Position numbers and translations under genes: made by a program. From an uncultured Lachnospiraceae bacterium (GTDB lineage Bacteria > Bacillota > Clostridia > Christensenellales > UBA1242), in NCBI GenBank assembly GCA_964368655.1, contig CAYJCC010000001.1:1-33233 (forward strand): DNA of 33,233 nucleotides, given 5' to 3'. This document shows positions 1-29,523 of this stretch, piece by piece. Position 1 is the first letter of the stretch. The number at the start of each line of letters is the position of its first letter. The notes under the pieces are model-generated. The model searched no databases, had not been told where the DNA came from, and saw only the letters and a list, made by a program, of their open reading frames with translations.

Positions 1-8
1 TCATTTAG

Positions 9-37
9 TTGACATAAACTTGCAAAATCTTTATAAT
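9..37 (+). promoter_or_regulatory. SigA/sigma-70-type promoter for the giant gene: TTGACA (9-14), 17-nt spacer, TATAAT (32-37)
   Basis: Both hexamers match the consensus exactly and the spacing is optimal. The site lies about 150 nt upstream of the ATG at 195, and no other gene lies between them. Confidence 0.6.
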
Positions 38-194
38 TTAAGTATCGATAATATCGTCAAAAAAGGCAAAGTATCGCTAAATTAAAAAAGACGATAGAAA
101 ACCGACAAAATTATCGCTTTTTCAGATAAATAAAAGTTACGGTTTTACAGAAAATAAAACGATTAGTTTATACTCAAAACATAACAGGTGGAAG

Positions 195-269
195 ATGGTT
201 GGAATTAAGAAGAATTTGTTAGTCATTTGTATGGTTCTGTTAAGTGCCTGTCTTTTACTTGCTGGTTGT
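195..269 (+). other. Lipoprotein signal peptide with lipobox L-A-G-C. The lipidated Cys25 codon is at 267-269.
   Basis: The n-region carries KK, the h-region is LLVICMVLLSACLL, and the lipobox LAG|C is followed by GD. This is the pattern of signal peptidase II substrates. Confidence 0.8.
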
Positions 270-3200
270 GGAGACCCATACAAAAACGCAAAGTTTAGTG
301 TGAATACAAATAACATCTTTATTGAATTGGTCGGCGACGCTGAACAAACTTTTAGCATCGTTGCAAATGTTTCGGGATTAAAAAAGAAAGCAGATAAAAC
401 TGCAGGGTATACAATCGAAGATCCTAATGGATATAACGCAATCAATTTTGACGAATCTACAACAAATGATGGAAAGACAACATTCAAATTTTCAACAAGA
501 GGAAAAGAGGGTAGAGTTACATTAAAAGTTTATTCAAATGAAGCTCAATCTAAGTTAAGTCAAAGTGTTGAGATTGTTATTGTTAAGAAAGTTACATCTT
601 TGGCAATGAAAGACAATCTTGCAGTTGAAAGAGGAACATCTATTGATATTTTACAAAACTTGACATTTGCACCAAATGATACCTCTCAAAAAGATATCAC
701 AGTTGAGTTCACAAATGTTGAGCAGTCTCAACTTCAAAATCTTACATATGAAAACGGAAAGGTTACAGTAAATAGAAACTTTGTAGGAAATTCTTTTGGA
801 ATTAAAGTTACAAGTATTTCTAATCCTGAATGTGTAGAGGAAGAGATTGTTTCAGTTATTGATATGTTAGACGTTGATTCTTTGGTTGCTATTAAGAGCA
901 GTGATTCAACAGATGCAGTTATAAATACAGAAGACCAAATGGCTGGACAATACAGTGTTTCACTCGCAAAGAATGTTACCGATTACAACAGCGTTCAAGT
1001 TATGATAAAACAAAAGGTTGGAGATGCTTTCTTAAATCTTGACCCAGAAAAATATTCAGTTAACATAAAGGGTTTGCAAAGCAACAACTTCTTTGCTCCA
1101 GAATATGCAAACAACGTAGTTAGTGCATCTAGAGTTCTCACCAGCAGTGGAGAGGAGTCGGGGGCTTTCTTGCTTAAAGCACAGGCAACGGCACAAGCAC
1201 TTCAACAGACATACACTTTGACATTCACGGTGGACCTTGTTGGTTACGAAGGAATGTTTACAAGAGAAATTTCTTTGACGGTTAAAGTTGTTTCATATCC
1301 TAACGATATTAAAATCTATGATTCATTTGGAACACAACTTTCAGAAGTGTCTATGTTCTCTCAATATTTTGGAGACATGATAAACACTGGAACACAGATA
1401 AAAGCTGTTGTTAGAAATGGTGAGGGCGAAGAATCTAGAAATTATGCTTACAAGTTAAGTATGCAAAGAGAAAGTGCTGGAGTTTGGACAAATGTTGAAT
1501 ATTCAGCATGGCCATTAAATGTTACATACAAAGAAGGTGGAGTAGTTACAGACAATGCAGTAATTTCTAGCAGCCAAGTATTGTATTTAACAAAGAAAGC
1601 AAGTGATGCTACAAATTCCAAATATAGACTTGTGTTTACGAACACTTTATATCCAGATACAAAAACTGAAATGCCAATAACATTCAAAGATGATTCTGGA
1701 ACAAACTTTACGAACACAACAATGGCATTGCCTATTGGTTCAACTAGAGTATTAACTGAAATCAACTCACAAAAAGTAAATTATGAAATTTTGAGTGGTG
1801 CTGAATATGTAACTATTACAGAAAGCACTAACACTTCAAAATATTCTATTAGAGCAGGAAGTTTGTTCGGTACTGCTAGAATAAGATTTGTTGCAGAGAA
1901 CGGAAGAACTGGAATATACACAGTAAACGTGTACGACGAAATGAGAGATGTTCAAGTATCCGTTGGTGGACAGACAATTTCCATAATTGCAGATGGTACA
2001 AATAATTTAACAAACACAATCGTTCCAGTTATAAATGTCACAACAGGAACATCTTTGGCTATTAACTATACTATCAATGGGATTGATTATCAAACAGCAA
2101 TTCCAAGCAGTCTTACAGCGAACGGGGTAGTTGTAGACCCAACAATTGCTATCTTTGGACAAACTCTTGGAGAAGTTGTTACAAAAACAAAAACAGGGGA
2201 CACTCTTGTTACTATAACATTGTTAGGTTATACCAACACTTATACTTTCAATTTTAGACTCAACGTTATAAACGCTCTTAACTATACAAACTTGAGAACG
2301 GTTGACGGAGAAGGCGAAACAACAATCTATCCTATAAATGCTGGTTTAGGAACAAATACGATATATATTCATCAATATGGGTATAAAACATTGAACTTGT
2401 TGTTAAATCCAACCAATGCAACTGTAAAAGCAGAAGATATAGATTGGCAAATTGTTTATAATAACGACAGTTATAATTTTGTTGAAGACGTTCAAGTAGG
2501 TGGTTCTTATTCAAACTGGACAGCTGAACACGAAACATTCTTCACGAATTCAAAATTATACTATTGCGAAGATATATCGGAAACAGATATCATTTTCTTG
2601 GAAGTAAGTGCAGATGGTAGACAAGCAATTGTTCATACATCTAAGAAAGTTACAGAAGATGAGACAACCTATGTCTTTGACATTGTAGCAAGTATAAGTC
2701 AAAGTTACGTAAATCCAAATGGAAACTTGGTAAACGTTATCAGAGAAAGTAGCGTTAAGGTTACCTTGGGAACAGTCGAGAAAACCTCATCAATTCTTTT
2801 CCAAGGATTACAAATGGTTGCTGATGAAAACAGAATAGTGTTTGACGTCAGAGACATGAATGGGTTTACTCAAAACAACACAAAAACATTTGAGTTTACA
2901 GTAGGCAATGATTTTGCATTAAATAAAGACTTGAAAGTTTCTGTATGGACAGAGACTGGAAACATGTTTGACACAACTGGTACAGTTTCTGCAAACATAA
3001 CAAATCGTGCCGATGGAACAGGAACTCTTGCTGTAACAGTTGAAGGCAATCCAAACAGAATCCTCGTTCTTCGAGTAGAATCTGAAGATGGTGGTTGCTG
3101 TTTTGATATCGTTCTTAAAATAGCAGACGGACTCACAGAAGAGACAGCTTTTGAAATCAAGACTGTTTCAGACCTTATCAGAATAAACCAAGCACTTAAT

Positions 3201-6200
3201 GCTTATTATGTGTTGACAAGTGACTTGAATATAAATGACTACGTTTCTAGAAACGGGTTGGCATCATGGACTCCAATCGGAACTGAAGAAGAACCTTTTG
3301 TTGGTAACTTCAATGGACAACAGACAGTTTCTGGAGAAAATTTGCAGTATACAATATACGGATTGAAACTTGCAGGGAGCATGGCTACTGCAGGACTTTT
3401 TGGTGTTATCGGAGAGGCTGGTACTGTTCAGAATGTTGTTTTACAAGACAGTCGAATAAATGTCAATACAGAAGGACAAACATCAGCATATATCGGAACA
3501 TTGGCTGGAAAGAACTATGGTACAATCGTAAATTGTAGCGTAAACGATGGAAACAATGCAGAAGCTGTTACAACAACAAGTTATGGAATGACTGTTGTGA
3601 ACACTAACGCAGGACTTATAGACTTATACGTTGGTGGAGTAATTGGTTACGCAAACGGGACCGTAACAAATGTAAGCGCTGTTTCTTCTATTAAAGTTAC
3701 AAACTCAAATGAAGCAACCAACGTATATGTTGGTGGTTTTGTTGGTCAAAACGGTGGAACAATCATTAATGATGAAACGAGTGGTGCAGCAATTGGTTTA
3801 GGTAACACACAAGTTGTTTGTTATATTGAAACAGTTGGGGCTGATGCAGTGGGTGGTGTTGCTGGAACAAACATTGGCGACATAATAGATACAAATGTTC
3901 AAGCATATATCAAAGCTGATGGAAACAACATTGGTGGTATTACTGGAAGCAATACTGGTTCAATTAGAAACATTACAGTTGTTCCAACTTTAATGGGCGT
4001 GGACAATGTTGGTGGTATTATTGGATACAACAATGGTGGACAGGTAATATCAAGTAAAGTTGAGTTTATAGACTATTTACAAAATTTAAGCCATTTGAAT
4101 ACTGGCATACACGGTCGTGACAATATCGGTGGAATTATAGGATATGTTGAAAACATAGGAAATTCATCACAGTATAACTCCGTTTATAGTTATTATGTAA
4201 GAGATATTTCAGAAGAAGCATATTCAGACACAGACAACACTGGCTTGTATTATGGAGACATTATAGGTAGAAATCATATCGGTGGTCTCTATGGATTTAT
4301 TAAAAATGGAACATTAAGCACTTGTGGAGTTGTAGCAAACATTTCTGGTGTAAATTATGTTGGAGGATTTGTTGGAGCAGCTGAATCCAACTTTAATATA
4401 GAGAATTCTAGCGCATACGGAAACATGACAGCAAGTGCAGAAAACGCATTTGTAGGTGTTTACGTTGGTGCAAAACAAGACATAATCGAAGAAAATGGCG
4501 TAGAAAACATACAATATAGTACGTACGTTGGTGCAATAGGCGAAGAAATTGTTGTTAACTCATATAGTTTTATCTTCTACATTAACGATGAAGACGATAA
4601 AATATATTGGGCAACTGGTACAACATTACCTCAAGAGTTGATAACAGATGGTGCAACGGCTAATAATTTAGAAGCAATTGAGATTTTCTTGCAAAATAAA
4701 TATGCGTTTGTTCCAGTTGTAGGAAGCGATGCTGACAAATTACAAGCAGTAATTGCTTTCTTATCAAATAATTCAAATACAATATCAAACAATATAAATA
4801 AATATCCTGTAAATACATTGCAAGGAGTTGTTAACTATATCAACTCATTTGATAATGTTTTAACAGGTACGTATACAACAGATGCTGAAAGACTTGCAGC
4901 CATCAATGATTTTGCAAATGTAAATTATAATGACGAAGTATTCCAAAGTGCTGTTGAATATGTGTTTGGCCATGACCTTATAGGCGATGGTATTTTGGCA
5001 AACAAATTTATTCCTCTACTTGTAACATATTTTAACAATATTGATGCAACTGCAGTAGTGGGAACATCTACAAATGCTGAAAAATTAACAGCAATGGAAA
5101 CCTTCTTAAACACAAAGACAACAGAAGCACACAATGCTGAAGCAAATGCAAACGAAGGTGTTTCAAATATTGCTGTGTTCAATCCTGTTTGGGCTAATTC
5201 TACAGCAATGAACAGAGTTGTAGATATTACAAACTTCTTATTAAACAATCCTTATCTTGGAAACTCAATTGTTCCAACTCTCATCGCTGCAGAAATTTCT
5301 TATTTGAGAGAGTATGATACAACAGCATTGACAGGAACATATGCGAATGACAATGAAAGATTACTTGCAATAGACGATTATTTGGCAAGAACAATGACTG
5401 GAAGAGATATTGACTATAACGGTTTTGCTTATAGCCAAAGATTTTCCGTTGTTTCAAGTTATGTAAGAAATAACTTTACATCTGAAGAATCAGAGCCTAT
5501 TGAAGAGTTTGCAGATATCGATGCCATTATTGCCTTGATTAAAGAGGTTGATAACACAGCATTGACAGGAATATATACAACCGACAATGAAAAAATAACA
5601 GCAGTAGAAAACTATTTAACGGGAACAACAAACTTTTCTTATGCTGAAAGATTCTCTGCAGTAGAAGAATATGTTAAAACACACAATTTAGGATTTTATA
5701 CATGGAACGGGTTGACCGGAGAAGATAGTTTATACACAGAAGCTATCGTTAACGCAGATGGCACATATTATGTAAGGAACGCAGAAACTGGGGAGTATTC
5801 TGCAACTATTGTTTCTGTAAGTTTTGCAAACATAGACGCAATAATTACATTTATAAAAACGGCAAATCCAAATGTTTTAACTGGCACATACACAACTGAT
5901 GAAGAAAAACTAGATGCAGTTGAAAGTTACCTTGCTATATATTACACAGAAAGACCATTCACGGCATATACTTTTACTAGTTATTCATATATAAATATGG
6001 CAATAACAGGACTTAACTACTTAGCTAATTTCGGCTATATAGATGGCCCAACATACGCATATGCAATTGAAGACTTGTCACAATATGTTGCATTCATTCA
6101 GAAAAACGTTGAACCAACAGCATTGCAAGGGTTAACCACAGATGCTCAAAGACTTGCAGCAATAACTGACTATTTGGAAGAAAATACTGATTATGAAAGA

Positions 6201-21200: not shown

Positions 21201-24200
21201 AATGGTAATATTTCAAATGTGACAGTTCTAAGCGGAGGGTCTTCAATAATTGGGAACCAATATGTTGGTGGTATTATTGGAAGAGCAGAAGGTTCAACGA
21301 TAAGCCTTAACACTGCTGGAGTAACGAATAAAACAGCAGTAAATTGCAATGTTCAAGGTGTAATTAATATAGGTGGTATTGTAGGATATGTAGTCAATAC
21401 AAAAATTTATGGCACGGGTTCAGCCCTTGCAACAAACATGGATACAAATGCTATAGTTGGAGGCAATATAACATTTGTAAACACTGGTTCAACCTTTGAT
21501 TCTATTGGTGGAGCCATTGGTTCTGCTAATAGTTCTGAAATATATAATATAAGTAGTACTTCTACGGTTGGAGATGGGACTTTAGGCGCAAATGTCGGTG
21601 GAATTGTTGGAATAAGCAATGATTCTCCAATTAGTTATTGTAAAAATGAAGGAACGGCTAAAGGACGCTCATATGTTGGTGGAATAACAGGACAGGCTGC
21701 TTATGGTTCTATTAACAATTGTGAAAACAGTGCAGGTATCCAAGGTAATTCGTACATAGGTGGAATTGCTGGTATTTCAAGCGGTAACATTGCAAATTGT
21801 ACTAATTCGGGAAAGATTACTGCCTCAATTTTGTCTGACGCAAAAGGTGCTGGTGGAATAGTTGGTGTATTGACGGCACAAAAAGTAGAACAATGTATAA
21901 ATAATGGTATAGTCAACAGTCTTTCTTCAGAGTATGTCGGAGGAATTGTTGGACGTGTTTATAGTCATGCTTCAATATCTGAAAGCGTAAATAATGCAAG
22001 AATTACGGGATTAAGATATGTTGGTGGTATAGTAGGTGGAGTTTATATTGATAGTCAAATATCCATAAATGAATCTGACAATAAAGGACAAATAGTGGGT
22101 AACGGAATAGTTGGTGGAATAATCGGTTATGCAAGGTCAGGGGCAAGTATAACTAACTGTGAAAATCAATCTTCAGCAATAGGAGAAAATGATTCTATTG
22201 GTGGAATTGTTGGACAAATAGATAGTGGAACGATTGAAAATTGTGCAAATAATGCCGCAATACAAGCTAATTACGCGGCCGGTGGAATAGTTGGAAATAG
22301 TAATGGTGGAAGTAGTTCCTTAAACGTTGTAATCACAAATCCAGGATTGGGAATATGGTCTTTTGTGAAGGGAAATTATTATGTTGGTGGAATTGCTGGT
22401 TATGCACAATACACTCAAATAAGGTTCACTTCAAATACTGTTCTAAACGTTGGAACAATAGAAGCTACAAACACTCAAGGGCAGAATGGAGGTTCCTTTG
22501 GCGGGTTGATAGGTAGAGGACAGTTTTGTGAAATTTATGGACAACATATATCTGATACTAATAAATTTGCAACTACAAATACTGGAAATACCCAGGTTAC
22601 GGCAACAATAAAGAGTAAGGATTCATATGCGGGTGGCATTATTGGAAGACTTGAGGGTGGAAAAATATACAATATAACACTTGCATACGGTATCGTGGGG
22701 GAGTCGTCAAAAGTAGACTATGTCGGCGGAATCGCAGGGCATAGCACAGGTGAAATTTTATACTGTTCAAATGCTAATACGTCTGAAATATACGGTCGCA
22801 ATTATGTTGGTGGCATTGCAGGAAGGTCTTCGGGGACGATAACCGATTGTTATAACACTGGCTTGGTTTCAGCAAGTGAGAGTTACGTTGGAGGTATTGC
22901 TGGTCAAGCTTATGGAACAATTCAGTTCGCGGGAGGCAGAAATACTTCTGGAATAGTTAGTGGGTTATCAAATGTTGGTGGAGTTGTTGGAGTTGTTTCC
23001 GATGGAAAATTAACAGTATACGGAACAATGGAATTCACAACTTCCAATAGCACATCTAAAACCTTATTTAGCGGGACACTTTCAAAATCTTCTAAGTTGG
23101 GTGGAATTATAGGATTGGTTGATGATTATTCTTACAACTCAGTTTATATATATAACATGATAAACAATAGTACAATTGCAGGAAGTGAAGCCGTAGGGGG
23201 TATTGTTGGGAATGCTCTTGGTGGTGGAGGAGAAATAAAATACTGTATTAACTATCAATCAATTACTGGCTCATCAAATGTCGGTGGAATTGCTGGAAAT
23301 GTTTTGGCTAAAAGTGGCAGTTATGTTATAGATGAATGCCATAACTATGTGGGTGCCCCAATAAAGAATGGCTCTAATGTCGGCGGAATAGTGGGGAATT
23401 TCAACAGAGGTACAATTTCAAACTGTGAAAATGTGGCGATAATAAGTGGTACATTTAATGTTGGTGGAATCGCTGGAAATAACGTTTCAACAATATACGG
23501 TTGTACCAACAATGGTGAGATAACAGGAACCTACTCCGTTGGTGGAATCGCTGGAACAAATAGTGGGTCTATCGGATCAAATGGAAATTCTTGTACTAAT
23601 TCAGGAAAGATTACTGCCTCAACTTCGTCTAACAAAAAAGGTTCTGGTGGAATTGTTGGAACAAACAGTGGAACCGTACAGTATTGTACGTCAGAAGAAG
23701 ATATTTCTGGGAAAACAAACACAGGTGGAATAGTTGGTTATTCTTCTTCGGGTAGCATTATTAGTAATTGTAAGACTCTTAGTGTAACGATAGAAGGAAC
23801 ATCAAACAATATTGGTGGAATAGTTGGGAGCAATTATTATGGAACAGTTTCTGAAAGTACTAGTTCATATGTAACGATAAAAGGATCGTACAACATTGGA
23901 GGCATTGCGGGTGCGTCGTATGGTACTATTGAAAATTGTTCTCTTGAAAAAGGAAGCTCGGTGACAGGATCGTCACACTCTGTTGGTGGCGTAGTTGGCT
24001 ATTTGTCTGGAACCACGGTTTCAGGATGTTTGGTTTATTCTTATTATCATGAAAAGAGAGTTGGACTTGGGTTTTGGGACTATCAAACACATGACGATCG
24101 AACATATATAACAGGACCCACGGATGTGGGTGGAATAGCCGGATATTCTTCAAGCTCAACGATAACAAATTCTTTTGTTGATTCCTATTCTTATAAGGAT

Positions 24201-25319
24201 TTGCGGGGGTACACCACATATTATGGAGAAGTTAGTTTGACGGGAGTTGGAAATGTTGGCGGAATCGTAGGAAGTGCTTATAGTAGCACAGTAAAACTTT
24301 GCACTAATGAATTTTATGTAAAAGGAAATGGAAATAATAGTGGCTGTTATGCGGGAGGAATCATTGGATATGCTTCTGGAAAAACGGAAGTTAACTCTTG
24401 TTTCAACATGGCAAGTATAACCAATGCCTATGAGGCTGGAGGAATTGTTGGAAGGGCATATAAGGACGCCAGGAGTCCATATCTTGTAAAAATTACAGCC
24501 TGTGGGAACTCTGCAGCTATAGATTCTGGTTGTGCAGGAGGAATTGTAGGAAATGGTGGAGAGTCTGTTTTAGCTGCAGATATTGACTACTGCATCAATA
24601 GTGGTAACGTTTCTGGAAAAAGGCAGGCCGGAGGAATTGTTGGTTACCATGCATACAGTATAAATAACTGTAGACAAGAAGGAACGGCTTCTTCCCAAGG
24701 TTCTAAAAACCCAATTATTGCATCTAATAACTCTGCTTTAAGTATAGCCCCTTCCGGAAACTATTTTTATGGAACCGAGGCTTGGAGCGGGTTTGACCCC
24801 AATGGAAACCCTAGATATTCAAATTATGCAACCGGAGAACGTCCTTATGGACCAGGCGATAATATTGGATATGATGATAACGGGACAGAATTTGATATTT
24901 ATATTGAGGGAACGTATACGGTTCAGGGGTATGCTTTATGGCTGGATGTAAACTCGAAGAGTAGTGGTACAAACAGGTCTTATGATTTTTATGGATGGAT
25001 GCTTGGTTATGAAAACGACACGGGAAAGGTTTCGAAAAACTTAAAAAGAGCTGGAGATTGGATAAATTTTGAAGAAGGCGTCCCTACCATATGGAGCTTA
25101 GGTGGAGAATATTCAATTTGTTTAATATTTTATGGACAACATGCTTATTCGTCTTATATTAGGATTGATAATGTAAATCTCTGGGTAATTCTTGGTACAA
25201 AAACCACTACCATAATTTCTTCATCCGATTCAGGCGATTCAGGAAGCACATTACAAAGAGTTAAATACTATATGTCTAACGGATCAGCAATAACTAATAG
25301 AACTAATAATATATACTAG
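195..25319 (+). CDS. Giant (8,374 aa) predicted cell-surface lipoprotein. Adhesin-like, with Ig-like arrays and seven GLUG-type beta-helix repeat modules. No catalytic motif recognised.
   Basis: The ORF runs 8,374 codons without a stop in AT-rich DNA, while every other frame is broken; the longest competing ORF inside it is 139 aa. An SD-like AGGTGGA lies at 186-192, close to the ATG at 195. The N-terminus MVGIKKNLLVICMVLLSACLLLAGC is a textbook SPase II signal. The stop is TAG at 25317, followed by further in-frame stops and an intrinsic terminator. The composition (N/T/G/S/V-rich) and repeat content are typical of secreted beta-helix adhesins. Confidence 0.93.
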   Translation: MVGIKKNLLVICMVLLSACLLLAGCGDPYKNAKFSVNTNNIFIELVGDAEQTFSIVANVSGLKKKADKTAGYTIEDPNGYNAINFDESTTNDGKTTFKFSTRGKEGRVTLKVYSNEAQSKLSQSVEIVIVKKVTSLAMKDNLAVERGTSIDILQNLTFAPNDTSQKDITVEFTNVEQSQLQNLTYENGKVTVNRNFVGNSFGIKVTSISNPECVEEEIVSVIDMLDVDSLVAIKSSDSTDAVINTEDQMAGQYSVSLAKNVTDYNSVQVMIKQKVGDAFLNLDPEKYSVNIKGLQSNNFFAPEYANNVVSASRVLTSSGEESGAFLLKAQATAQALQQTYTLTFTVDLVGYEGMFTREISLTVKVVSYPNDIKIYDSFGTQLSEVSMFSQYFGDMINTGTQIKAVVRNGEGEESRNYAYKLSMQRESAGVWTNVEYSAWPLNVTYKEGGVVTDNAVISSSQVLYLTKKASDATNSKYRLVFTNTLYPDTKTEMPITFKDDSGTNFTNTTMALPIGSTRVLTEINSQKVNYEILSGAEYVTITESTNTSKYSIRAGSLFGTARIRFVAENGRTGIYTVNVYDEMRDVQVSVGGQTISIIADGTNNLTNTIVPVINVTTGTSLAINYTINGIDYQTAIPSSLTANGVVVDPTIAIFGQTLGEVVTKTKTGDTLVTITLLGYTNTYTFNFRLNVINALNYTNLRTVDGEGETTIYPINAGLGTNTIYIHQYGYKTLNLLLNPTNATVKAEDIDWQIVYNNDSYNFVEDVQVGGSYSNWTAEHETFFTNSKLYYCEDISETDIIFLEVSADGRQAIVHTSKKVTEDETTYVFDIVASISQSYVNPNGNLVNVIRESSVKVTLGTVEKTSSILFQGLQMVADENRIVFDVRDMNGFTQNNTKTFEFTVGNDFALNKDLKVSVWTETGNMFDTTGTVSANITNRADGTGTLAVTVEGNPNRILVLRVESEDGGCCFDIVLKIADGLTEETAFEIKTVSDLIRINQALNAYYVLTSDLNINDYVSRNGLASWTPIGTEEEPFVGNFNGQQTVSGENLQYTIYGLKLAGSMATAGLFGVIGEAGTVQNVVLQDSRINVNTEGQTSAYIGTLAGKNYGTIVNCSVNDGNNAEAVTTTSYGMTVVNTNAGLIDLYVGGVIGYANGTVTNVSAVSSIKVTNSNEATNVYVGGFVGQNGGTIINDETSGAAIGLGNTQVVCYIETVGADAVGGVAGTNIGDIIDTNVQAYIKADGNNIGGITGSNTGSIRNITVVPTLMGVDNVGGIIGYNNGGQVISSKVEFIDYLQNLSHLNTGIHGRDNIGGIIGYVENIGNSSQYNSVYSYYVRDISEEAYSDTDNTGLYYGDIIGRNHIGGLYGFIKNGTLSTCGVVANISGVNYVGGFVGAAESNFNIENSSAYGNMTASAENAFVGVYVGAKQDIIEENGVENIQYSTYVGAIGEEIVVNSYSFIFYINDEDDKIYWATGTTLPQELITDGATANNLEAIEIFLQNKYAFVPVVGSDADKLQAVIAFLSNNSNTISNNINKYPVNTLQGVVNYINSFDNVLTGTYTTDAERLAAINDFANVNYNDEVFQSAVEYVFGHDLIGDGILANKFIPLLVTYFNNIDATAVVGTSTNAEKLTAMETFLNTKTTEAHNAEANANEGVSNIAVFNPVWANSTAMNRVVDITNFLLNNPYLGNSIVPTLIAAEISYLREYDTTALTGTYANDNERLLAIDDYLARTMTGRDIDYNGFAYSQRFSVVSSYVRNNFTSEESEPIEEFADIDAIIALIKEVDNTALTGIYTTDNEKITAVENYLTGTTNFSYAERFSAVEEYVKTHNLGFYTWNGLTGEDSLYTEAIVNADGTYYVRNAETGEYSATIVSVSFANIDAIITFIKTANPNVLTGTYTTDEEKLDAVESYLAIYYTERPFTAYTFTSYSYINMAITGLNYLANFGYIDGPTYAYAIEDLSQYVAFIQKNVEPTALQGLTTDAQRLAAITDYLEENTDYERPAAINLTTLEEVVEFLNENPLSARTIMVTLTDVDSVFNYLKEQLGATFTMNAFLTNIYQFNELIGNANTGLNDVAPSNTDIWYVSVNVSDGYPMLLSQEPVKDGKISVIANLPPVDATIQLVADGERIFDSNYVETTGTIEDLVVIFFPRENSIAVPSNMIAEVNNFFNKVNTYDASDIISIATVPGFAGDSKFTITSSNNSIISYSSLNNTLSVKGEGTVTLTISSLYNRSLAKTITIKVVRGITDFELYKEVMNEENLLNVAEGQNKVENAKTIDIQKEKSKTVFPFADIDADKVYEFISNTDLSEELKNNIHIGQNSSIGVRYYLLAGGSIYSTSEISNNTITISGQSFVSQEISTGRWISYLDFDEISGNQIRGTNAGIANILAVPYIKLNDNSKIVLEKYNILNVEHGDFGVYFNTNVYLGTNSVTVSDSAKTFKPQASVVFDVIIETDKNAEKLYININGVQTEIGNTVIKYDDSLNIQLETTPLYVAGTSPTMGTKTYTIRLDVPENGRWFAEDKNYTLEFYTINETNEKKSDSIDITINPQSVEDVNIAHYPNAEFKQSADGTVWEAGDESEVAYDNIIPSHIGLLKANIYPYYANLDEIQISSNSTALSFNQVFGEKTIVTNSEVEEGFIVKKYRLLSNTSEDLTTLSLRPRSYFSTIGENSIDQDKNYFDGNLYITTLLSPDAQEGSTITITLTGYLKGETKFVKSIDLTVIKLPTVVFDYEGKGAISTPVARGLDFSFTATLSNADTLSLTDSYYADSVDGTPLVSGLNNAYYTITESGNGYSVSVLPRAEQGKYIVIVGKVTKTINNVEYSGEARIVLKVADYVINSISVENATDGYLVGLFGQAYKLKVVINATYSEVVANWSSSTIYSDIQRLEQELSMSGIGENNPYVPTWYLTNTTATGTTYQSINEGLYEAAGFRIRTVAGFYDRVVAGVNERLTNTGFALTGTDFNSQAVLRAIAHITYGENGAEVCTDILYTDEFVELTADFGLGFYRDSTEDNPNPIYTKEELIALGNASDTTIKGAYILQSDIELDDWEPLLLSEAVTSLDGNGYVVSLKNFNLPENTSNEVPTASGNIGVFQKIHSGMTLKNFVVEIRPNADINIINESKTTSDEFNTINPDLTVNLTNYATVNYGTIAGINEGIMTNCQVVYNANNIRSMRDTLLLAENVGTVPSGNIMQDGRTLDISKYKDSGVSYNYTSGEWTGGKRDLSTVKFETYDIKTSLSMTIGGLVAVNSGFVTNSSVENISLITQYGELAGLIAHQSNKLSSSYYKGGNIINVSTSSVAGNIAAGLVVRNSGDIQYSYSYGRDTYSYNKEQDAYSETEESDANKKGITSGSFAGQQDNNPNGPETEMKYLRALSSKVYAGVYSAGFVYENTGYISNSYSNILVDGANTSGFVFRNGSAEATAEENADVVISDCYSLSSVQTNSLLASPFTGRDSSGNILSYSGATIEYCYFLFVRINDTDAEPERLKDQINRENELATPLGISQFGEYNTFAGFYFNSDFKTNSDITRSVWFIPKSNEESEALYSGVYDQSFKSSFYGLNRPELVAANLKTFSLRVINTSLYTVNELANYLNTNWYSNFDFVDYSSSSSNDANPNVQTMAQFIQLTEIIGFINDQESVSARKINITTTASDSAKISAIVNYLNNNAQIYPVTTSDVPLSINNIIHAIKNNPQAFNGQVLNTLEGSVFTINNLATYLERQKSSTLSYYYTGTVIGEDISNPILIDSAEKFNAYVSTENLGVTGASMLDNAYIRFVQNIEYNKDGDLNADTYTVDFRGDLDGNGMTISQLRLVADSDYVVEVGQEVNNLGLFATISSAYQNGKTQYGSVRNLNIEVVSVDGVGVECVGVLAGTIDGGKVANINITSYGENQVLVTGKNLAGGVAGYVKGDAELVNIQSTLSVMVDYKNNVNNFPDAIYELGPTTDKTFFIYDNRLSSPNLSKLSYAGGIAGIIDTQERVSNVGSSSSLYNSRVRRVTVSSDAVLSGEIVGGLFGLIGESTQVSDVSLIITGTPHLNAIRAAGGIAGENRGKIERATVVHSEETQAEIDQLISQNAQVSTIHDKTYNTLFTRNANFIGGLVGMNFAGEITNSYNLVSVENPRAAYAGGLIGLDISGTITSVYTTASVKAYRSYGGITGKEVSYNAVLLVDMARNRLSTNIQNVDYLNELVKNSDQVIYKGVNGINLWTAEDLTTFNRYNGQDYNYADVGSFIGTLIVKDTIDIRCANSVEIDTRLRNEYNYFMTANYLDSAKAGQLLLQVGNLALSDLITEEGSGNFASNTQELEAKISEVEGAASKPYIQSGNYMYENSEGKTTYYHVSRLQKYGSLRTLSEFVSMTLDVTKARQTSNEFNTETLEYELTNEDKYFTMIDVINNYILTDSDKYELLGQSTNETILLYSYMNSNHTKIMTSLSENENRTRLVDYCEKVIITGNTVTIETSLTGMRTELQRVVTYLSDAFTGNESTFAELVQVINSYEPTSQNLIDTRLTEDELKARIKAFMDADTKNTFVDGTDDENWNAPGVVESLVTYINNNYSLEAGQQIPQRANAKSPKIFTTYNPMLWHGVTFREDGTKEFTEVALPKLEPKADLGVITVTTVEELLLIETYRFSKFIIAADIDLSTYDGDWLPLCSEDFPFQGTIEGAERKTEGDQPVTGSYYGIYNISIIGKTNKLGLLSYVENATFKNLTLGVIKVDNAGYNGESGPAYVGALFAYSNNTQNQITIVDNVHVISNDGYIDKVLENATSMKTAAEEELEINLAIKNGNSSYKISATYTGAVGSLFGYANGVQLKNVSVGLDGNNDYSGVVEARSVYAGATDTVTAGAIAGKIVSRESRISVRKNFASLEEARNTYKIEDYLAYTVNGADNNNTRLNIKQSVSDGEEKESLSLVLAFGGLFGEIEDGLGGGTAVNIKNIKVNNPGVTSDTIRLTMDYNAGEIYVGGAIGRTVGAVNINSNEYITEERTNMLALGNSLSFEDDSTDANSPNLTLTEKNAYTMQLLARNVEGYAVANNSIIRLKLDNNNSRLFVGGFVGSHSGTSSLNSSFNNIDLTGETKIILSGANTPAKTLDEKVDYNVYFGGAVGYLQQNASDIDLKSGSFDISKEDTYEGLFLGGIAGYMTNSVMSDVAAKISLVVPNNLSFSEKYLGGIAGYSYNSSFDMVASDGNIEYLGEDEAEIGGLVGKFVAKSLGGAFTISRVFSNMNIKSNGTGNFGGLIGILLAGDHSEGEINISDSYSAGSVWAAADAIEGVSVGGFIGSANFKQTSDSASCKGLLEVKNSYSIANVVTATTETNKATYLNENDGSYGAFVGSIRTDDVDGAFYNVYYNADLAPRSAEIPGITGLSTKNMLFESLGTFNGYLDTEIWTLVSGAYPVLKYALDVNSFAGAYASQTLTAQENKQSIFQQAETNQIPVANAEETENSIAVIYSSGQLSEVGNKTIYIVAGSTITYGTIATVDTLGRLWGVDGTNVSITTNNGIISNTNLTLNNNDKNFVGTNNGIIQNTKVNENHLNLTTVANTNRLAKPIVGTNNGIIDKLSVVGYVKADLATIFVEGTNAGMIIDSVARTDHPTAKLTTNSGAEEAGSGNDYIRNSLLYNENGFVYYGNTTNGHVLSFPLTAFSTDVEIDPNSDQFGVLTGEETIEEFMRAFDITNYTGWATSQGFDFDQIWTMIEPQDESGYKNLIEEIQDLKSEYVALADGYKAVQARIAELKGTGRITTTVYARIAPTSVGGAATNNSSISAAVYTNGAIYAAQNTMTNARAKYEEAKNTYDNMVRPAGLTDEAWAEKKAIAATNVTREWNNYLSTIDSYNNLIVEYRARILTAEGENEDPRSLGYALFLVKEKATEIGRKDASFGAKVVKDITNSGAPTLQWTLKDYWTNENLSTQYEWKLNAEAQSGTLAGNLNSIYGASGSDGLINVINGNATISAVFGENVVGSTVNDLKTAIENSGDTLFAGTVERLTNADTLIKIKAWLSNKVITRDTSKLIEIGRAEELAWVSNLNRAGVEFRGVTLELTADIDLGGKLWQPIGNGYDNGQTRLEGDVTPFYGYINGNWHTIKNISVFASDSNAGLFGTVVNYGTTPFAKELYMEGGFVISVNSLDAINIDNSPFANAGSLVGHLEKTSNSTILSKVVVKNVAVTATHNAGGIIGTTVGSAIIEYSYTKDMVIKGAGAIANVEGTSSVLSGITNVSGTILANQVYSKNSYNIGSAGVRVYPITNNTLAATSAAYYEALLRETSAAGAIEKSKEQMVSESWGNFSWADIWYRDTNGEINEGYPELYVYENSDYWYAYVQNTQTSLNTNGRVDYSVNGDVYTVFTGAGLAYMSYLVANGDDFSGKTITLGNDISLSGRFWTPIGTTTNPFKGTFDGNFKSVFGLTCYSVFVGDTETAATLNLGLFGYVQDATIRNVTVGVPSDDENYETKVSTIGGVSNIGGIIGQAVRSTISNVVSYTVINTTEGQTGENIGGIVGFATNSKLIECTNYGAITGLTTTNVGGIVGRMTYDSTTGGTFMPTGTLSGERIESLLGNLNSSKLVNNAVIRSNGSYVGGIFGQISNANQFTVTGTYNGITYTNEVFTPSVSESYNTGIVSSSDSYVGGISGYSQRTSYTLVYNIANVTGSTNVGGILGYTTGSGSLAKDIYIDNSMLVEAGSAKPSSTGTIKGQNYIGGVVGYSDTTTIMGVTNCSPIIRVSGASQDSYFGGIVGYANNSNLYEVANKVELTVGAGYVGGIACYVGGIAGYASFDNSSEAINLYDTSTQYSEAGSLHIFPDKDPLIARYSGTANRVSSAVYGGATQSRVSNINNSIVSAANAETNTIFTNSSVWVNGVLKYARTVEILPNKTNSSVTINTADEFYMIAYMMAMRLNRPIVTEITLGADIVLDLSATNYVRNLESGKISPHASNLLGTGDNYKFKGTFNGNNKTITLSRTSEETFSEEIFSNMYTGLFGCVQNGQISNLTISLAGNIVGFNYTGALAGIVQNGNISNVTVLSGGSSIIGNQYVGGIIGRAEGSTISLNTAGVTNKTAVNCNVQGVINIGGIVGYVVNTKIYGTGSALATNMDTNAIVGGNITFVNTGSTFDSIGGAIGSANSSEIYNISSTSTVGDGTLGANVGGIVGISNDSPISYCKNEGTAKGRSYVGGITGQAAYGSINNCENSAGIQGNSYIGGIAGISSGNIANCTNSGKITASILSDAKGAGGIVGVLTAQKVEQCINNGIVNSLSSEYVGGIVGRVYSHASISESVNNARITGLRYVGGIVGGVYIDSQISINESDNKGQIVGNGIVGGIIGYARSGASITNCENQSSAIGENDSIGGIVGQIDSGTIENCANNAAIQANYAAGGIVGNSNGGSSSLNVVITNPGLGIWSFVKGNYYVGGIAGYAQYTQIRFTSNTVLNVGTIEATNTQGQNGGSFGGLIGRGQFCEIYGQHISDTNKFATTNTGNTQVTATIKSKDSYAGGIIGRLEGGKIYNITLAYGIVGESSKVDYVGGIAGHSTGEILYCSNANTSEIYGRNYVGGIAGRSSGTITDCYNTGLVSASESYVGGIAGQAYGTIQFAGGRNTSGIVSGLSNVGGVVGVVSDGKLTVYGTMEFTTSNSTSKTLFSGTLSKSSKLGGIIGLVDDYSYNSVYIYNMINNSTIAGSEAVGGIVGNALGGGGEIKYCINYQSITGSSNVGGIAGNVLAKSGSYVIDECHNYVGAPIKNGSNVGGIVGNFNRGTISNCENVAIISGTFNVGGIAGNNVSTIYGCTNNGEITGTYSVGGIAGTNSGSIGSNGNSCTNSGKITASTSSNKKGSGGIVGTNSGTVQYCTSEEDISGKTNTGGIVGYSSSGSIISNCKTLSVTIEGTSNNIGGIVGSNYYGTVSESTSSYVTIKGSYNIGGIAGASYGTIENCSLEKGSSVTGSSHSVGGVVGYLSGTTVSGCLVYSYYHEKRVGLGFWDYQTHDDRTYITGPTDVGGIAGYSSSSTITNSFVDSYSYKDLRGYTTYYGEVSLTGVGNVGGIVGSAYSSTVKLCTNEFYVKGNGNNSGCYAGGIIGYASGKTEVNSCFNMASITNAYEAGGIVGRAYKDARSPYLVKITACGNSAAIDSGCAGGIVGNGGESVLAADIDYCINSGNVSGKRQAGGIVGYHAYSINNCRQEGTASSQGSKNPIIASNNSALSIAPSGNYFYGTEAWSGFDPNGNPRYSNYATGERPYGPGDNIGYDDNGTEFDIYIEGTYTVQGYALWLDVNSKSSGTNRSYDFYGWMLGYENDTGKVSKNLKRAGDWINFEEGVPTIWSLGGEYSICLIFYGQHAYSSYIRIDNVNLWVILGTKTTTIISSSDSGDSGSTLQRVKYYMSNGSAITNRTNNIY
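276..3146 (+). other. N-terminal array of Ig-like/beta-sandwich domains (about 950 aa), including Big_2-like segments
   Basis: Alternating-hydrophobic beta-strand patterns end in '...G.v.l.V......s..v.i.V' motifs, for example GRVTLKVYSNEAQSKLSQSVEIVIV and YEILSGAEYVTITESTNTSKYSIRAGSLFGTARIRFVAENGRTGIYTVNVY. Domain boundaries were not resolved. Confidence 0.5.
3150..4560 (+). repeat. Beta-helix module 1: N-cap (3150-3323) plus about 10 GLUG-type repeats
   Basis: The cap reads FEIKTVSDLIRINQALNAYYVLTSDLNINDY...WTPIGTEEEPFVGNFNGQ. It is followed by periodic repeats such as LYVGGVIGYANGTVTNV, VYVGGFVGQNGGTIIND, DAVGGVAGTNIGDIIDT, NNIGGITGSNTGSIRNI, DNVGGIIGYNNGGQVIS and NYVGGFVGAAESNF. Confidence 0.7.
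4560..6437 (+). repeat. Helical linker region with five copies of an unclassified roughly 31-aa repeat: [IV]xx[FY][IL]xxxxxxxLTGTYTTDxE[KR]LxA[IV]xx[YF]L
   Basis: The copies are at 4827-4913 (VVNYINSFDNVLTGTYTTDAERLAAINDF), 5292-5384 (EISYLREYDTTALTGTYANDNERLLAIDDYL), 5526-5618 (IIALIKEVDNTALTGIYTTDNEKITAVENYL), 5841-5933 (IITFIKTANPNVLTGTYTTDEEKLDAVESYL) and 6084-6176 (YVAFIQKNVEPTALQGLTTDAQRLAAITDYL). There are also shorter half-motifs (DADKLQAVIAFLSNN, TNAEKLTAMETFLNTK, NNLEAIEIFLQNK). The region is followed by a module end-cap, DIWYVSVNVSDGYPMLL (6438-6489). Confidence 0.75.
6490..9242 (+). other. Second Ig-like/beta-sandwich array (about 915 aa) with a clear Big_2-like segment at 6777-6926
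   Basis: KFTITSSNNSIISYSSLNNTLSVKGEGTVTLTISSLYNRSLAKTITIKVV matches the bacterial Ig-like group 2 pattern (tSSN..ia.v...G.v.a...Gt.titA.......itV). The surrounding sequence has beta-sandwich-like periodicity. Confidence 0.55.
9243..10908 (+). repeat. Beta-helix module 2 (cap 9243-9419, degenerate GLUG-type repeats, end-cap SVWFIP...GLNRPELV)
   Basis: The cap reads NPIYTKEELIALGNASDTTIKGAYILQSDIELDDWEPL...LDGNGYVVSLKNF. Repeats include NYGTIAGINEGIMTNCQV, MTIGGLVAVNSGFVTNSSVEN, YSAGFVYENTGYISNSYSN and TSGFVFRNGS. Confidence 0.6.
11418..12830 (+). repeat. Beta-helix module 3 (cap 11418-11636 plus about 9 GLUG-type repeats)
   Basis: The cap reads NPILIDSAEKFNAYV...DFRGDLDGNGMTISQLRL. Repeats include NLAGGVAGYVKGDAELVNI, SYAGGIAGIID, EIVGGLFGLIGESTQVSDV, RAAGGIAGENRGKIERATV, NFIGGLVGMNFAGEITNSYN and AYAGGLIGLDISGTITSVY. 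Confidence 0.65.
14031..16391 (+). repeat. Beta-helix module 4 (cap 14031-14184, about 14 GLUG-type repeats, end-cap EIWTLVSGAYPVLKYAL 16341-16391)
   Basis: The cap reads ITVTTVEELLLIETYRFSKFIIAADIDLSTYDGDWLPLCSEDFPFQGTIEG. Repeats include IYVGGAIGRTVGAVN, LFVGGFVGSHSGTSSLNSS, VYFGGAVGYLQQNASD, LFLGGIAGYMTNSVMSD, KYLGGIAGYSYNSSFD, AEIGGLVGKF, GNFGGLIGILL and VSVGGFIGSANF. Confidence 0.65.
17290..17830 (+). other. Predicted alpha-helical/coiled-coil segment (about 180 aa) in the middle of the giant protein
   Basis: The segment is rich in charged residues and Ala and lacks Gly/Asn: YKNLIEEIQDLKSEYVALADGYKAVQARIAELKG ... ARAKYEEAKNTYDNMVRP...AWAEKKAIAATNVTREWNNYLSTIDSYNNLIVEYRARILTAEGE ... LFLVKEKATEIGRK. 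This contrasts sharply with the flanking beta-repeat sequence. Confidence 0.5.
18213..19109 (+). repeat. Beta-helix module 5 (cap 18213-18447, few repeats, end-cap ADIWYRDTNGEINEGYPELYVYE)
   Basis: The cap reads LIEIGRAEELAWVSNLNRAGVEFRGVTLELTADIDLGGKLWQPIGNG...FYGYINGNWHTIKNISV. It is followed by NAGLFGTV, ANAGSLVGHLEKTSNSTILSKVVVKN and HNAGGIIGTTVGSAIIEYSY. Confidence 0.6.
19200..20768 (+). repeat. Beta-helix module 6 (cap 19200-19392, about 10 GLUG-type repeats, end-cap SSVWVNGVLKYARTVE)
   Basis: The cap reads YTVFTGAGLAYMSYLVANGDDFSGKTITLGNDISLSGRFWTPIGTTTNPFKGTFDGNFKSVFGL. Repeats include SNIGGIIGQAVRSTISN, ENIGGIVGFATNSKLIECTNYG, TNVGGIVGR, SYVGGIFGQ, SYVGGISGY, TNVGGILGY, NYIGGVVGY and SYFGGIVGY. 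Confidence 0.7.
20439..20480 (+). repeat. In-frame 21-bp tandem duplication (2 copies, 20/21 identical) inside a GLUG repeat
   Basis: The two copies are tatgtaggaggtatcgcaTgt (20439-20459) and tatgtaggaggtatcgcaGgt (20460-20480). Together they encode YVGGIAC-YVGGIAG. Confidence 0.9.
20796..24707 (+). repeat. Beta-helix module 7: cap 20796-21044 followed by about 38 consecutive GLUG-type repeats (about 26-30 aa period), many with a conserved Cys (I.NC.N.G.I.G...VGGI[AV]G)
   Basis: The cap reads VTINTADEFYMIAYMMAMRLNRPIVTEITLGADIVLD...YKFKGTFNGNNKTITLSR. It is followed by an almost unbroken series such as SYVGGITGQAAYGSINNCENSAGIQGN, SYIGGIAGISSGNIANCTNSGKITAS, NYVGGIAGRSSGTITDCYNTGLVSAS, SNVGGIVGNFNRGTISNCENVAIISGT and FNVGGIAGNNVSTIYGCTNNGEITGT. 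Confidence 0.8.
24708..25316 (+). other. Non-repetitive C-terminal domain (about 203 aa), aromatic/Gly-rich, predicted beta-sandwich. Possible ligand- or carbohydrate-binding tip.
   Basis: The GG[IV]xG periodicity stops abruptly. The sequence reads NPIIASNNSALSIAPSGNYFYGTEAWSGFDPNGNPRYSNYATGERPYGPGDNIGYDDNGTEFDIYIEGTYTVQGYALWLDVNSK...GEYSICLIFYGQHAYSSYIRIDNVNLWVILG. It ends in a Ser/Asp/Gly-rich tail, with no LPXTG motif and no hydrophobic anchor. Confidence 0.5.
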
Positions 25320-25337
25320 TAGAACTAATAATATATA
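25298..25337 (+). repeat. 18-nt perfect direct repeat at a 22-nt period straddling the giant-gene stop codon, which is followed by two further in-frame stops
   Basis: tagaactaataatatata occurs at 25298-25315 and again at 25320-25337. The in-frame reading is ...AGA ACT AAT AAT ATA TAC TAG TAG AAC TAA. Confidence 0.9.
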
Positions 25338-25404: not shown

Positions 25405-25442
25405 AAAAAACAACGTTCATAATTTGGACGTTGTTTTTTTTT
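25405..25442 (+). terminator. Rho-independent terminator of the giant gene (symmetrical A-tract/T-tract, potentially bidirectional)
   Basis: aaaaaacaacgt (25405-25416) pairs perfectly with acgttgtttttt (25428-25439). The stem can be extended by a U17-G27 wobble and C18-G26, leaving a 7-nt loop. A T-run follows through 25442, about 85 nt after the stop codon. Confidence 0.8.
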
Positions 25443-25554: not shown

Positions 25555-25583
25555 TTGACCATTTGGTTTTTTTATGGTAAAAT
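25555..25583 (+). promoter_or_regulatory. rpoBC promoter: TTGACC (25555-25560), 17-nt spacer, extended -10 TGgTAAAAT (25575-25583)
   Basis: The -35 hexamer is near-consensus and the spacing is 17 nt. A TG lies one base upstream of TAAAAT, and the upstream flank is A/T-rich (UP-like). The site lies between the terminator of the giant gene and rpoB. Confidence 0.55.
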
Positions 25584-25606: not shown

Positions 25607-25638
25607 GCGAGGAAAACCGTCGTTTTTCTTCGCCTTTT
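25607..25638 (+). promoter_or_regulatory. Terminator-like hairpin in the rpoB 5' leader (possible attenuator)
   Basis: GCGAGGAAAA (25607-25616) pairs with TTTTCTTCGC (25624-25633): 10 bp including one G-U pair, with a 7-nt loop, followed by CTTTT. A second small hairpin, cgtc/gacg, lies at 25639-25652. The loop bases ccgtc (25617-25621) could alternatively pair with gacgg (25649-25653). Confidence 0.35.
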
Positions 25639-29508: not shown

Positions 29509-29523
29509 TAGGAGTTGTAGAGT

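Follow-up and report, generated by a model that had tools for sequence, protein, structure and literature searches.

An 8,374-residue, predicted lipid-anchored beta-helix protein encoded beside rpoBC in an uncultured gut bacterium

Introduction

Several giant bacterial adhesins share a common plan. Ebh of Staphylococcus aureus, SiiE of Salmonella, LapA of Pseudomonas and MpIBP of Marinomonas are all multi-thousand-residue stalks of immunoglobulin-like (Ig-like) beads, with ligand-binding modules at their distal ends. They are held at the cell by a C-terminal transmembrane segment, by retention in a type I secretion system or by a sortase anchor, and their tandem repeats are nearly identical. 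Here, we analyze a 33,233-nt stretch of DNA (contig CAYJCC010000001.1, positions 1 to 33,233, forward strand; hereafter, the window), in which a single gene encodes a protein of 8,374 amino acids (aa) that is predicted to be anchored by a lipid at its N-terminus and to contain seven beta-helix modules.

Beta-helices of the kind in question have been described in other surface proteins. In the Gram-positive IgA1 metalloproteases (Streptococcus pneumoniae ZmpA/IgA1P, PDB 6xja and 7uvl; the G. haemolysans enzyme, 7uvk), a right-handed GLUG helix serves as a non-catalytic gate, and catalysis resides in the domains that bear the HExxH motif (PMC7695701). These proteins and BACOVA_03286 (3n6z) share the right-handed beta-helix and the cap F-x-G-x-(F/L)-D-G-N-G with the modules of the window protein. 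Lactobacillus reuteri SRRP (5nxk) and Streptococcus pneumoniae PfbA are, as predicted for the window protein, surface proteins with a right-handed beta-helix, which in their case forms the binding region, and here too there is a gut-commensal context. Finally, giant proteins have been catalogued from metagenomes (West-Roberts et al. 2023, bioRxiv 10.1101/2023.11.21.568195). Giants of the Omnitrophota type have many transmembrane regions and a divergent SecA/DEAD domain, those of the Oscillospiraceae type consist of RCC1 repeats only, and those of gut Clostridia include proteins with Listeria-Bacteroides repeats, as do some orthologues of the window protein.

Results

The giant gene occupies positions 195..25319 on the forward strand, as do all window features described below. 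It is one unbroken frame of 8,374 codons, which begins with ATG and has a lone stop codon at its end (25317-25319). The five alternative frames of the same interval contain 340-758 stops, the longest rival frame inside the gene is 139 aa, and the chance of 8,374 stop-free codons, estimated from base composition, is about 1e-291. These numbers bear out the first-pass annotation, made from the sequence by eye, which held that the open reading frame (ORF) could not be due to chance and that competing ORFs reach at most 139 aa. The G+C content of the gene (36.3%) resembles that of the remaining window (37.9%). Intragenic DNA repeats span only 30-69 nt and are at most 88% identical, which makes repeat collapse during assembly unlikely; at the protein level, self-comparison reveals internal repeats of 22-35% identity. 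Frame statistics, flank-like G+C content and the absence of long DNA repeats confirm that the gene is real and native.

The protein begins with a canonical signal peptide for signal peptidase II (195..269), with a positively charged n-region, an h-region and a lipobox arranged as MVGIKKN-LLVICMVLLSACLL-LAG/C, where the slash marks the predicted cleavage site. The lipobox, LLAG/C, makes Cys25 the candidate lipid acceptor. In full, the N-terminus reads MVGIKKNLLVICMVLLSACLLLAG up to the cleavage site and CGDPYKN after it. Residues 8-26 form the sole transmembrane-like hydrophobic stretch in the whole of the 8,374 aa (hydropathy peak, 2.68). In nine of the eleven full-length orthologues examined (P0001-6, P0008, P0010, P0012; see below) a signal peptide opens the protein, and the lipobox cysteine lies at residue 24-26 and is followed by the motif C-x3-Y-(K/E/Q)-N, and the cysteine and C-x3-YKN also occur in the metagenomic ORFs of loci L096-L103, both tandem paralogues included. 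The cysteine is retained in orthologues that are no more than 24-37% identical to the protein of the window. This conservation, together with the single hydrophobic segment, lends support to the lipobox proposed in the first-pass annotation, and suggests that the giant protein is lipidated on Cys25. The genes lgt and lsp lie outside the window.

Other means of attachment were sought and not found. The giant protein has neither an LPxTG sorting signal nor a C-terminal hydrophobic tail, and SLH, CWB2 and choline-binding families are missing from it by Pfam and NCBIfam, even at E <= 1 to 10. Motif, family and hydropathy scans thus agree with the earlier reading that LPXTG, SLH, choline-binding and C-terminal transmembrane anchors are absent. 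The same reading had noted the lack of HExxH or any other catalytic signature. Consistent with this, neither HExxH nor HxxEH occurs anywhere in the giant protein, and no M26, carbohydrate-active enzyme (CAZyme), lyase or peptidase family is detected by Pfam or NCBIfam. Pfam also finds no SecA or DEAD domain in it.

Of all Pfam families, only GLUG (PF07581) is recognized, in at least 26 stretches with scores of 48-86 bits against a gathering cut-off of 20.5. These stretches cluster at aa 1000-1450, 3900-4200, 4900-5300 and 6000-8170, and about 75% of the protein is without a Pfam match. NCBIfam recognizes no family in it at all, and neither a sequence search of the PDB with the protein nor a profile search with the family gave a meaningful match. 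A cap with the grammar I-x-T-x-E-(E/D)-L, D-I-D-L, W-x-P-I-G, F-x-G-x-F-D-G-N-G, followed by GLUG rungs, opens each beta-helix module. A profile of this cap matches at aa 983, 3017, 3744, 4613, 6008, 6338 and 6868, and nowhere else. Seven beta-helix modules had been counted by eye, and seven are returned by the profile; since these same seven caps went into the profile, the count is in part circular.

We can thus follow the protein from one end to the other. The signal peptide is followed by about nine Ig-like beta-sandwich domains (aa 26-985; 270..3149), assigned by AlphaFold2 and Foldseek, and by module 1 (aa 983-1450; 3141..4544), assigned by the cap profile, Pfam GLUG matches and self-similarity. 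Next comes a block of putative helical repeats, TGTYTTDxEKLxAIxxYL (aa 1451-2060; 4545..6374), which stands out in a self-BLAST and whose motif was read by eye. This block has no Pfam match and is skipped by all orthologue alignments but one. It is expanded in the window protein only, and single copies of the motif precede later modules. A conserved beta-rich region follows (aa 2080-3004; 6432..9206), which is 28-36% identical to orthologues, has weak similarity to Big_2 and probably consists of more Ig-like domains. Module 2, with the cap SLDGNGYV (aa 3005-3580; 9207..10934), is among the best-conserved parts of the family. It is separated by a predicted helical linker (aa 3582-3726; 10938..11372; pLDDT, the predicted local distance difference test, below 50), which is common only to the window protein and P0010, from module 3 and its conserved extension (aa 3730-4370; 11382..13304), where identity to all orthologues is 35-37%. 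Module 4 (aa 4603-5390; 14001..16364) rests on a cap match and GLUG-like self-similarity. Between modules 4 and 5 lie TNNGxI repeats and then a helical, possibly coiled-coil segment (aa 5391-6007; 16365..18215), read from the sequence and without a family match; the putative coiled coil is placed near aa 5700-5880. Within it, a short-period TNNG-x-I repeat spans 16662-16994 (aa 5490-5600), and NNG-x-I runs occupy the matching place in P0001, P0002 and P0004.

The distal modules 5, 6 and 7 (aa 6008-8170; 18216..24704) carry dense GLUG rungs, as judged from Pfam (9 + 10 stretches), caps and motif density. The protein ends in an aromatic-rich tip of about 200 residues (aa 8171-8374; 24705..25316) that is an orphan: it has no match in Pfam, in a word-indexed search of 5.8 billion protein clusters or in any member of the family, in keeping with the unique C-terminal domain announced by the first reading. 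An exact 18-nt direct repeat, TAGAACTAATAATATATA, with a period of 22, is found at 25298-25315 and 25320-25337, spanning the stop codon; it looks like a small tandem duplication.

We used AlphaFold2 to model two parts of the protein. For aa 24-985, a nine-sequence alignment yielded an all-beta, beads-on-a-string model of about nine sandwiches (pLDDT 73.8). In Foldseek searches, this model matches the titin I-band, the S-layer proteins Sap, SbsB and EA1, and cadherins, all at a probability of 1.0, and it also matches the base of GhpA. The segment is, as modeled, a generic Ig-like array. Big_2, the Pfam family that the first-pass annotation had proposed as a check, is below significance (E = 0.36-0.41). 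Hence, the Ig arrays of the first reading stand at aa 24-985 by structure prediction, and not as Big_2 members by Pfam.

For aa 3005-4204 (modules 2 and 3), a 12-sequence family alignment gave a model with an overall pLDDT of 67 and a predicted template modeling score of 0.70, in which two beta-helices are confidently predicted (residues 1-475 and 725-1150 of the model; cores at pLDDT 80-97). Against the PDB, modules 2-3 match 3n6z, 6xja, 7uvl and 7uvk with a Foldseek probability of 1.0. The first of these is BACOVA_03286, and the other three represent the beta-helix of the Gram-positive IgA1 metalloproteases. Weaker matches include polysaccharide lyases of family 6 (PL6), pectin enzymes, tailspikes and the L. 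reuteri SRRP adhesin (5nxk). The modeled modules show the right-handed parallel beta-helix of GLUG proteins. AlphaFold2 and Foldseek thus agree with the proposed combination of an Ig array and beta-helix modules for the two parts modeled.

The window protein has relatives. Queried with aa 3500-4699, an exhaustive HMMER scan returned 618 proteins, and in the top 12 full-length matches (6,280-7,804 aa) the query aligns at the collinear position, around residues 3100-4300. Word-indexed searches with aa 1-1200, aa 2540-4370 and the tip had found no homologue. For the first two of these queries the lack of a match is explained by saturation of the candidate list with 8,000 low-complexity or GLUG-word candidates, and the contrast with HMMER implies that negative results of indexed searches are unreliable for repeat-rich giants. 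Collinear BLAST alignments to the orthologues show 24-26% identity over aa 1-1277, 28-36% over aa 2083-3580, 35-37% over aa 3729-4364 and 24-28% over aa 5881-7375. Between pairs of orthologues, identity is 55-77% around aa 2500-4000 and declines steadily to 25-37% in the last third; the counterpart of the distal modules is their fastest-diverging part. Some orthologues terminate in Listeria-Bacteroides (Flg_new) repeats, where the window protein has its orphan tip. Near-identical full-length ORFs of the family come from several independent assemblies, and none is named in its source.

On the evidence of these alignments, the window protein belongs to an unnamed family of giant lipoproteins, 5.4-7.8k aa in length, with a shared collinear architecture. 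It shows both collinear homology over the proximal ~4,400 aa and the lipobox-YKN N-terminus, and it is the longest member seen. The first-pass annotation had described the domain grammar as unlike that of any characterized adhesin, and we found none such in the literature or databases; the 618 relatives show that the protein is no orphan. Our literature search found no description of a giant rpoB-adjacent lipoprotein family, and the passages searched in the giant-protein preprint (10.1101/2023.11.21.568195) do not mention an rpoB-adjacent lipobox GLUG family. Shorter frames were also noted. Locus L099 contains a complete family ORF of ~3,250 aa (1483-11235) with the lipobox-YxN N-terminus, and in L102 (2663-11164) a lipobox-YxN frame of at least 2,834 aa runs off the contig end; from these, the family probably spans a wide size range. 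P0096 (5,357 aa), considered as an upstream paralogue, was rejected as an unrelated GLUG protein of other architecture.

The giant gene lies immediately upstream of rpoB (25813-29508) and rpoC (29524-33126; together, 25813..33126) on the same strand. These two genes were identified by Pfam and by synteny in relatives, and place the giant-gene locus in a housekeeping region of the chromosome. We scanned a genome collection with RpoB and retrieved 80 loci from uncultured Clostridia of animal and human guts, mostly labeled Christensenella. Among the 28 nearest loci whose flank is complete, 20 have a single open frame that fills all 10 kb upstream of rpoB and runs off the locus, and the same kind of run-off frame precedes rpoB in three more distant genomes. 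GLUG sequence is present in these frames, and they show homology among themselves across ~3,000 aa. P0004 (7,525 aa), which comes from the goat-colon metagenome-assembled genome (MAG) RGIG2139 (JAFQTP010000002.1), ends in the same C-terminal sequence as the frame that precedes rpoB at L011, a goat-colon MAG.

Around P0004, P0003 and P0008 (L091, L093 and L094), the gene order is giant A, giant B, rpoB, rpoC. Gene A (positions 1-9631, 1-9601 and 1-9552, respectively) encodes 5,360-5,973 aa and is a paralogue of B, with 25-28% identity. The A-B gap of ~400 nt holds a terminator and a TTGACA promoter. Only 194 nt of the window precede the ATG, and its first position falls within the equivalent gap, so that a paralogue A may precede the giant gene here too. 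Two metagenome contigs, L101 (3017-20647) and L103 (3002-20539), contain a complete gene of ~5,850 aa with the lipobox FLAGCGDKYKNM, followed ~100 nt downstream by a second gene that starts ...LLFGCGNKYKNLK. Both paralogues of this pair have the lipobox and C-x3-YKN; the flank up to rpoB lies outside the view of these contigs. In all, four of the relatives with a readable upstream flank have a second giant paralogue in tandem, and it is a predicted lipoprotein where its start is visible. Taken together, the pairs reach up to ~13,500 aa and ~40 kb, and the comparisons suggest that the giant gene is a member of an old paralogous set of lipoprotein genes, often present as a tandem pair in the relatives examined. 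Upstream of paralogue A in L101 are genes for an M23-like peptidase, an acyl carrier protein, a SpoIIID-like protein and a PP-loop ATPase. The idea that the pair is inserted between rplL and rpoB was dropped, as the upstream genes in L101 are other than rplL. Shortly downstream of rpoC, L091 (42126-42404) and L093 (38149-38415) have a gene for a HicB-like antitoxin, a position that the window does not reach.

In a neighbor-joining tree of RpoB, carriers group in a single large clade, within which the window is a deep, long branch, and a second, separate RpoB clade also has a giant gene. Among 185,579 species-representative genomes, none has an RpoB more than 74.9% identical to the one encoded in the window, and neither this RpoB nor the giant protein has an exact match in a collection of 15 billion proteins. 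These values indicate that the source organism represents a deep, unrepresented branch of the gut clade. Peptide patterns from the giant protein found no match in genome contigs or metagenome contigs. The hosts of related genes are goat, yak and roe deer (gut MAGs), and related genes also occur in Hadza and Nepali human gut metagenomes. In five loci (L012, L015, L019, L028, L046), the contigs end 79-551 nt upstream of rpoB; assemblies may fragment there, under-representing the family in catalogues.

The giant gene appears to have its own expression signals. A sigma-70-type promoter, TTGACA-17-TATAAT, lies at 9..37 and matches the consensus at 12/12 positions, and a TTGACA-type promoter is found at a similar distance before the orthologous gene in L091, L093 and L094. 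The Shine-Dalgarno sequence AGGTGGA (186..192), read from the sequence, is 2 nt 5' of the ATG at 195. Downstream, an intrinsic terminator (25405..25442; hairpin 25405-25439) is predicted by RNA folding, with a 15-bp stem, a 5-nt loop and a T9 tract. Its fold has a free energy of -17.4 kcal/mol (z = -6.6), and 0/200 shuffled sequences fold equally well. A simple terminator scanner missed this hairpin because the flanking A and T runs pair too. The perfect promoter and the dedicated terminator named in the first-pass annotation are thus both recovered.

Further downstream, rpoB is preceded by a promoter-like site of its own (25555-25583; TTGACC-17-TAAAAT, with an extended -10, TG ahead), which makes a separate transcription unit plausible. 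A second terminator-like hairpin (25607-25633; 10 pairs) was seen in the rpoB leader, ~180 nt before the ATG, and could act as a transcription attenuator. An Rfam scan of the window returned no matches. Homopolymer and simple sequence repeat tracts are absent from the giant gene and its promoter, and phase variation of the gene was dropped as a possibility on that account.

Discussion

We consider it probable, albeit well short of certain, that the giant protein forms a surface fibre that is anchored by a lipid and has no enzymatic function. Adhesion would be its most likely role in the uncultured gut bacterium, a low-GC relative of the Christensenellales. In this model, the protein would be exported by Sec, lipidated at Cys25 and cleaved by signal peptidase II, which would hold its N-terminus at the outer face of the cytoplasmic membrane. 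A conserved proximal stalk (aa 26 to ~4400), comprising about nine Ig-like domains, modules 1-3 and beta-rich and helical segments, would take the protein through the wall and past it. The fast-evolving distal half, with modules 4-7 and their GLUG rungs, and the lineage-unique tip of 200 aa would then display the binding surface. Non-catalytic like their counterparts in IgA1 protease and in beta-solenoid adhesins, the beta-helices would act as rigid spacers and ligand-binding faces rather than as enzymes. Candidate ligands include host glycans, dietary polymers and other cells. From the domain counts, we infer an extended fibre of ~150-200 nm if fully extended. The lipid would be its only tether, and the adhesive function, like the choice of ligand, is suggested by architecture and divergence pattern.

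Several observations weigh against this model. The Ig-like array is as similar to S-layer proteins as it is to adhesins, the helical segments are predicted at low confidence, and the lowest Foldseek E-values for the two-module model belong to PL6 alginate lyases (7.5e-05 and 4.5e-04). Because about three quarters of the sequence lies outside curated families, catalytic or other activity could hide there. The protein may also be folded back or assembled laterally rather than extended. Lastly, an inner subclade of the RpoB tree (L020, L021, L025, L027, L030, L038) has ordinary-sized genes upstream of rpoB and no family member there, so that the gene is either dispensable (lost) in these organisms or relocated.

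The first of these observations bears on a different role, namely that the protein, with its tandem paralogue where one exists, is an envelope scaffold: a lipid-anchored fibrillar coat or S-layer-like lattice that serves wall spacing, shape or barrier function instead of binding a specific ligand. Lineage-wide, vertical presence at the fixed housekeeping rpoBC locus would fit such a role, as would strong conservation of the proximal 4,400 aa, the match of the Ig-like array to Sap, EA1 and SbsB at probability 1.0, a promoter of perfect consensus and the lack of phase-variation tracts. Nevertheless, we regard a scaffold as unlikely. Families that form lattices or bind the wall, SLH and CWB2 among them, are not detected, Ig-like arrays are generic, and one subclade has lost the gene from the rpoB locus. 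Moreover, the distal third diverges fast and swaps its end modules, which is typical of ligand-facing adhesins.

The two roles could be combined. It is conceivable, though we hold it with little confidence, that the rpoBC-linked giants are a vertically inherited, defining envelope organelle of a family-level Christensenellales-like clade, a lipid-anchored fibrillar coat with a structural base and diversifying distal halves for recognition of a partner or host. If so, they would represent a way of building the Gram-positive surface that differs from sortase, SLH and S-layer systems. Such an organelle would be largely invisible in genome catalogues, because assemblies break at the locus; contig breaks near rpoB and empty word-indexed searches both imply that genes of this kind are likely under-counted.

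The PL6 matches raise the question of whether the protein is instead a tethered multi-enzyme, with some of its seven modules active as polysaccharide lyases, hydrolases or depolymerases, or with an unrecognized protease in its unannotated parts, directed against dietary fibre, mucin or the envelopes of other cells. Its fold is shared with PL1, PL6, glycoside hydrolase family 28 (GH28) and phage tailspike depolymerases, and GLUG repeats elsewhere accompany M26 proteases. A link to cell-wall degradation has also been drawn for giant proteins of predatory bacteria (bioRxiv 10.1101/2023.11.21.568195). The PL6 matches themselves are poor, however, with TM-scores of 0.11-0.19 and a root-mean-square deviation of ~30 Å, and thus reflect the two-helix layout only. 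Beta-helix lyases and hydrolases (PL1, PL6, GH28, tailspikes) give no sequence-profile match and agree at the level of the fold with TM-scores of 0.1-0.4. The confident structural matches, those with a probability of 1.0 and the best TM-scores, are to the non-catalytic GLUG helix of the IgA1 proteases and to BACOVA_03286. Most invariant columns of the family hold Gly or Asn, residues with a structural part in the rungs. With no CAZyme, lyase or peptidase family by Pfam or NCBIfam, no PDB sequence match and no HExxH motif, an enzymatic role seems improbable.

A cell-to-cell tether, by which the bacterium would attach to another microbe in episymbiosis, syntrophy or contact-dependent antagonism, and not to host or dietary surfaces, is likewise improbable. 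The extreme length, variable distal end and orphan tip would suit it, the Ig array is similar to the base of GhpA, the grappling-hook protein of Aureispira, and Christensenellales are known partners of methanogens. Yet the giant protein has no toxin, Rhs, lysozyme or secretion-system domain, and neither the window nor the flanks of its relatives contain a pointer to a partner organism. In any case, a tether is a sub-case of the adhesin model with another ligand, and the two are inseparable by sequence alone. Finally, it is most unlikely that the frame arose through chimeric or collapsed assembly, or is a pseudogene in decay, and lacks a functional product: the exact gene is absent from all collections searched, leaving no independent assembly to compare, but the stop-free probability of ~1e-291, the divergence of the internal repeats (25-35% identical as protein, and no longer than 69 nt as DNA), the architecture collinear with orthologues from many independent assemblies, and the intact start signals, lipobox and terminator all speak against an artefact.

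Should the protein prove to be a lipid-tethered fibre, it would reveal a new way of anchoring very long surface structures in Gram-positive bacteria. The family would provide a natural series of conserved stalks with variable tips, in which to study host or partner specificity in a poorly understood gut lineage without cultures, and a large block of protein sequence outside curated libraries (~75% without a Pfam match). Carriers of the tandem pair invest ~40 kb in it; in a small genome, this would come to a few percent of the total.

How, then, does the window protein relate to systems already described? In comparison with IgA1P, it is without the M26 region, HExxH, G5 and LPXTG. Where IgA1P has a single helix of ~270 aa that gates the active site, the window protein has seven modules totalling ~4,000 aa and no active site to gate. 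SRRP and PfbA have one helix and a C-terminal sortase/LPXTG anchor, are 10-20 times smaller and, in the case of the SRRPs, are exported via the accessory Sec pathway (aSec); the window protein has a predicted N-terminal lipid anchor and no sequence homology to them. It differs from the giant fibrillar adhesins in its N-terminal lipobox, in repeats that are 25-35% identical, and in beta-helices that alternate with Ig-like and helical segments. Relative to the Omnitrophota type, the window protein has one hydrophobic segment and no SecA/DEAD match.

The closest counterparts are the members of its own family. With these (P0004, for example) the window protein shares the lipobox and C-x3-YKN, the Ig-like array, modules 1-3, the distal GLUG modules and the position beside rpoB, whereas it is the longest, has the expanded block at aa 1451-2060, lacks Flg_new, carries the orphan tip and is only 24-37% identical. 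It falls outside the M26 proteases, the sortase-anchored adhesins, the SLH S-layer proteins and the Omnitrophota giants, as it lacks a defining feature of each. Its building blocks, namely the lipobox, Ig-like domains and the GLUG beta-helix, are known, and so are giant fibrillar surface proteins as a kind. What is new is, first, that a predicted N-terminal lipid anchor is joined to seven GLUG beta-helix modules; second, the lineage-wide placement of the gene beside rpoBC, with a tandem pair in several relatives; and, third, for the window member in particular, its record size, expanded helical block and orphan tip.

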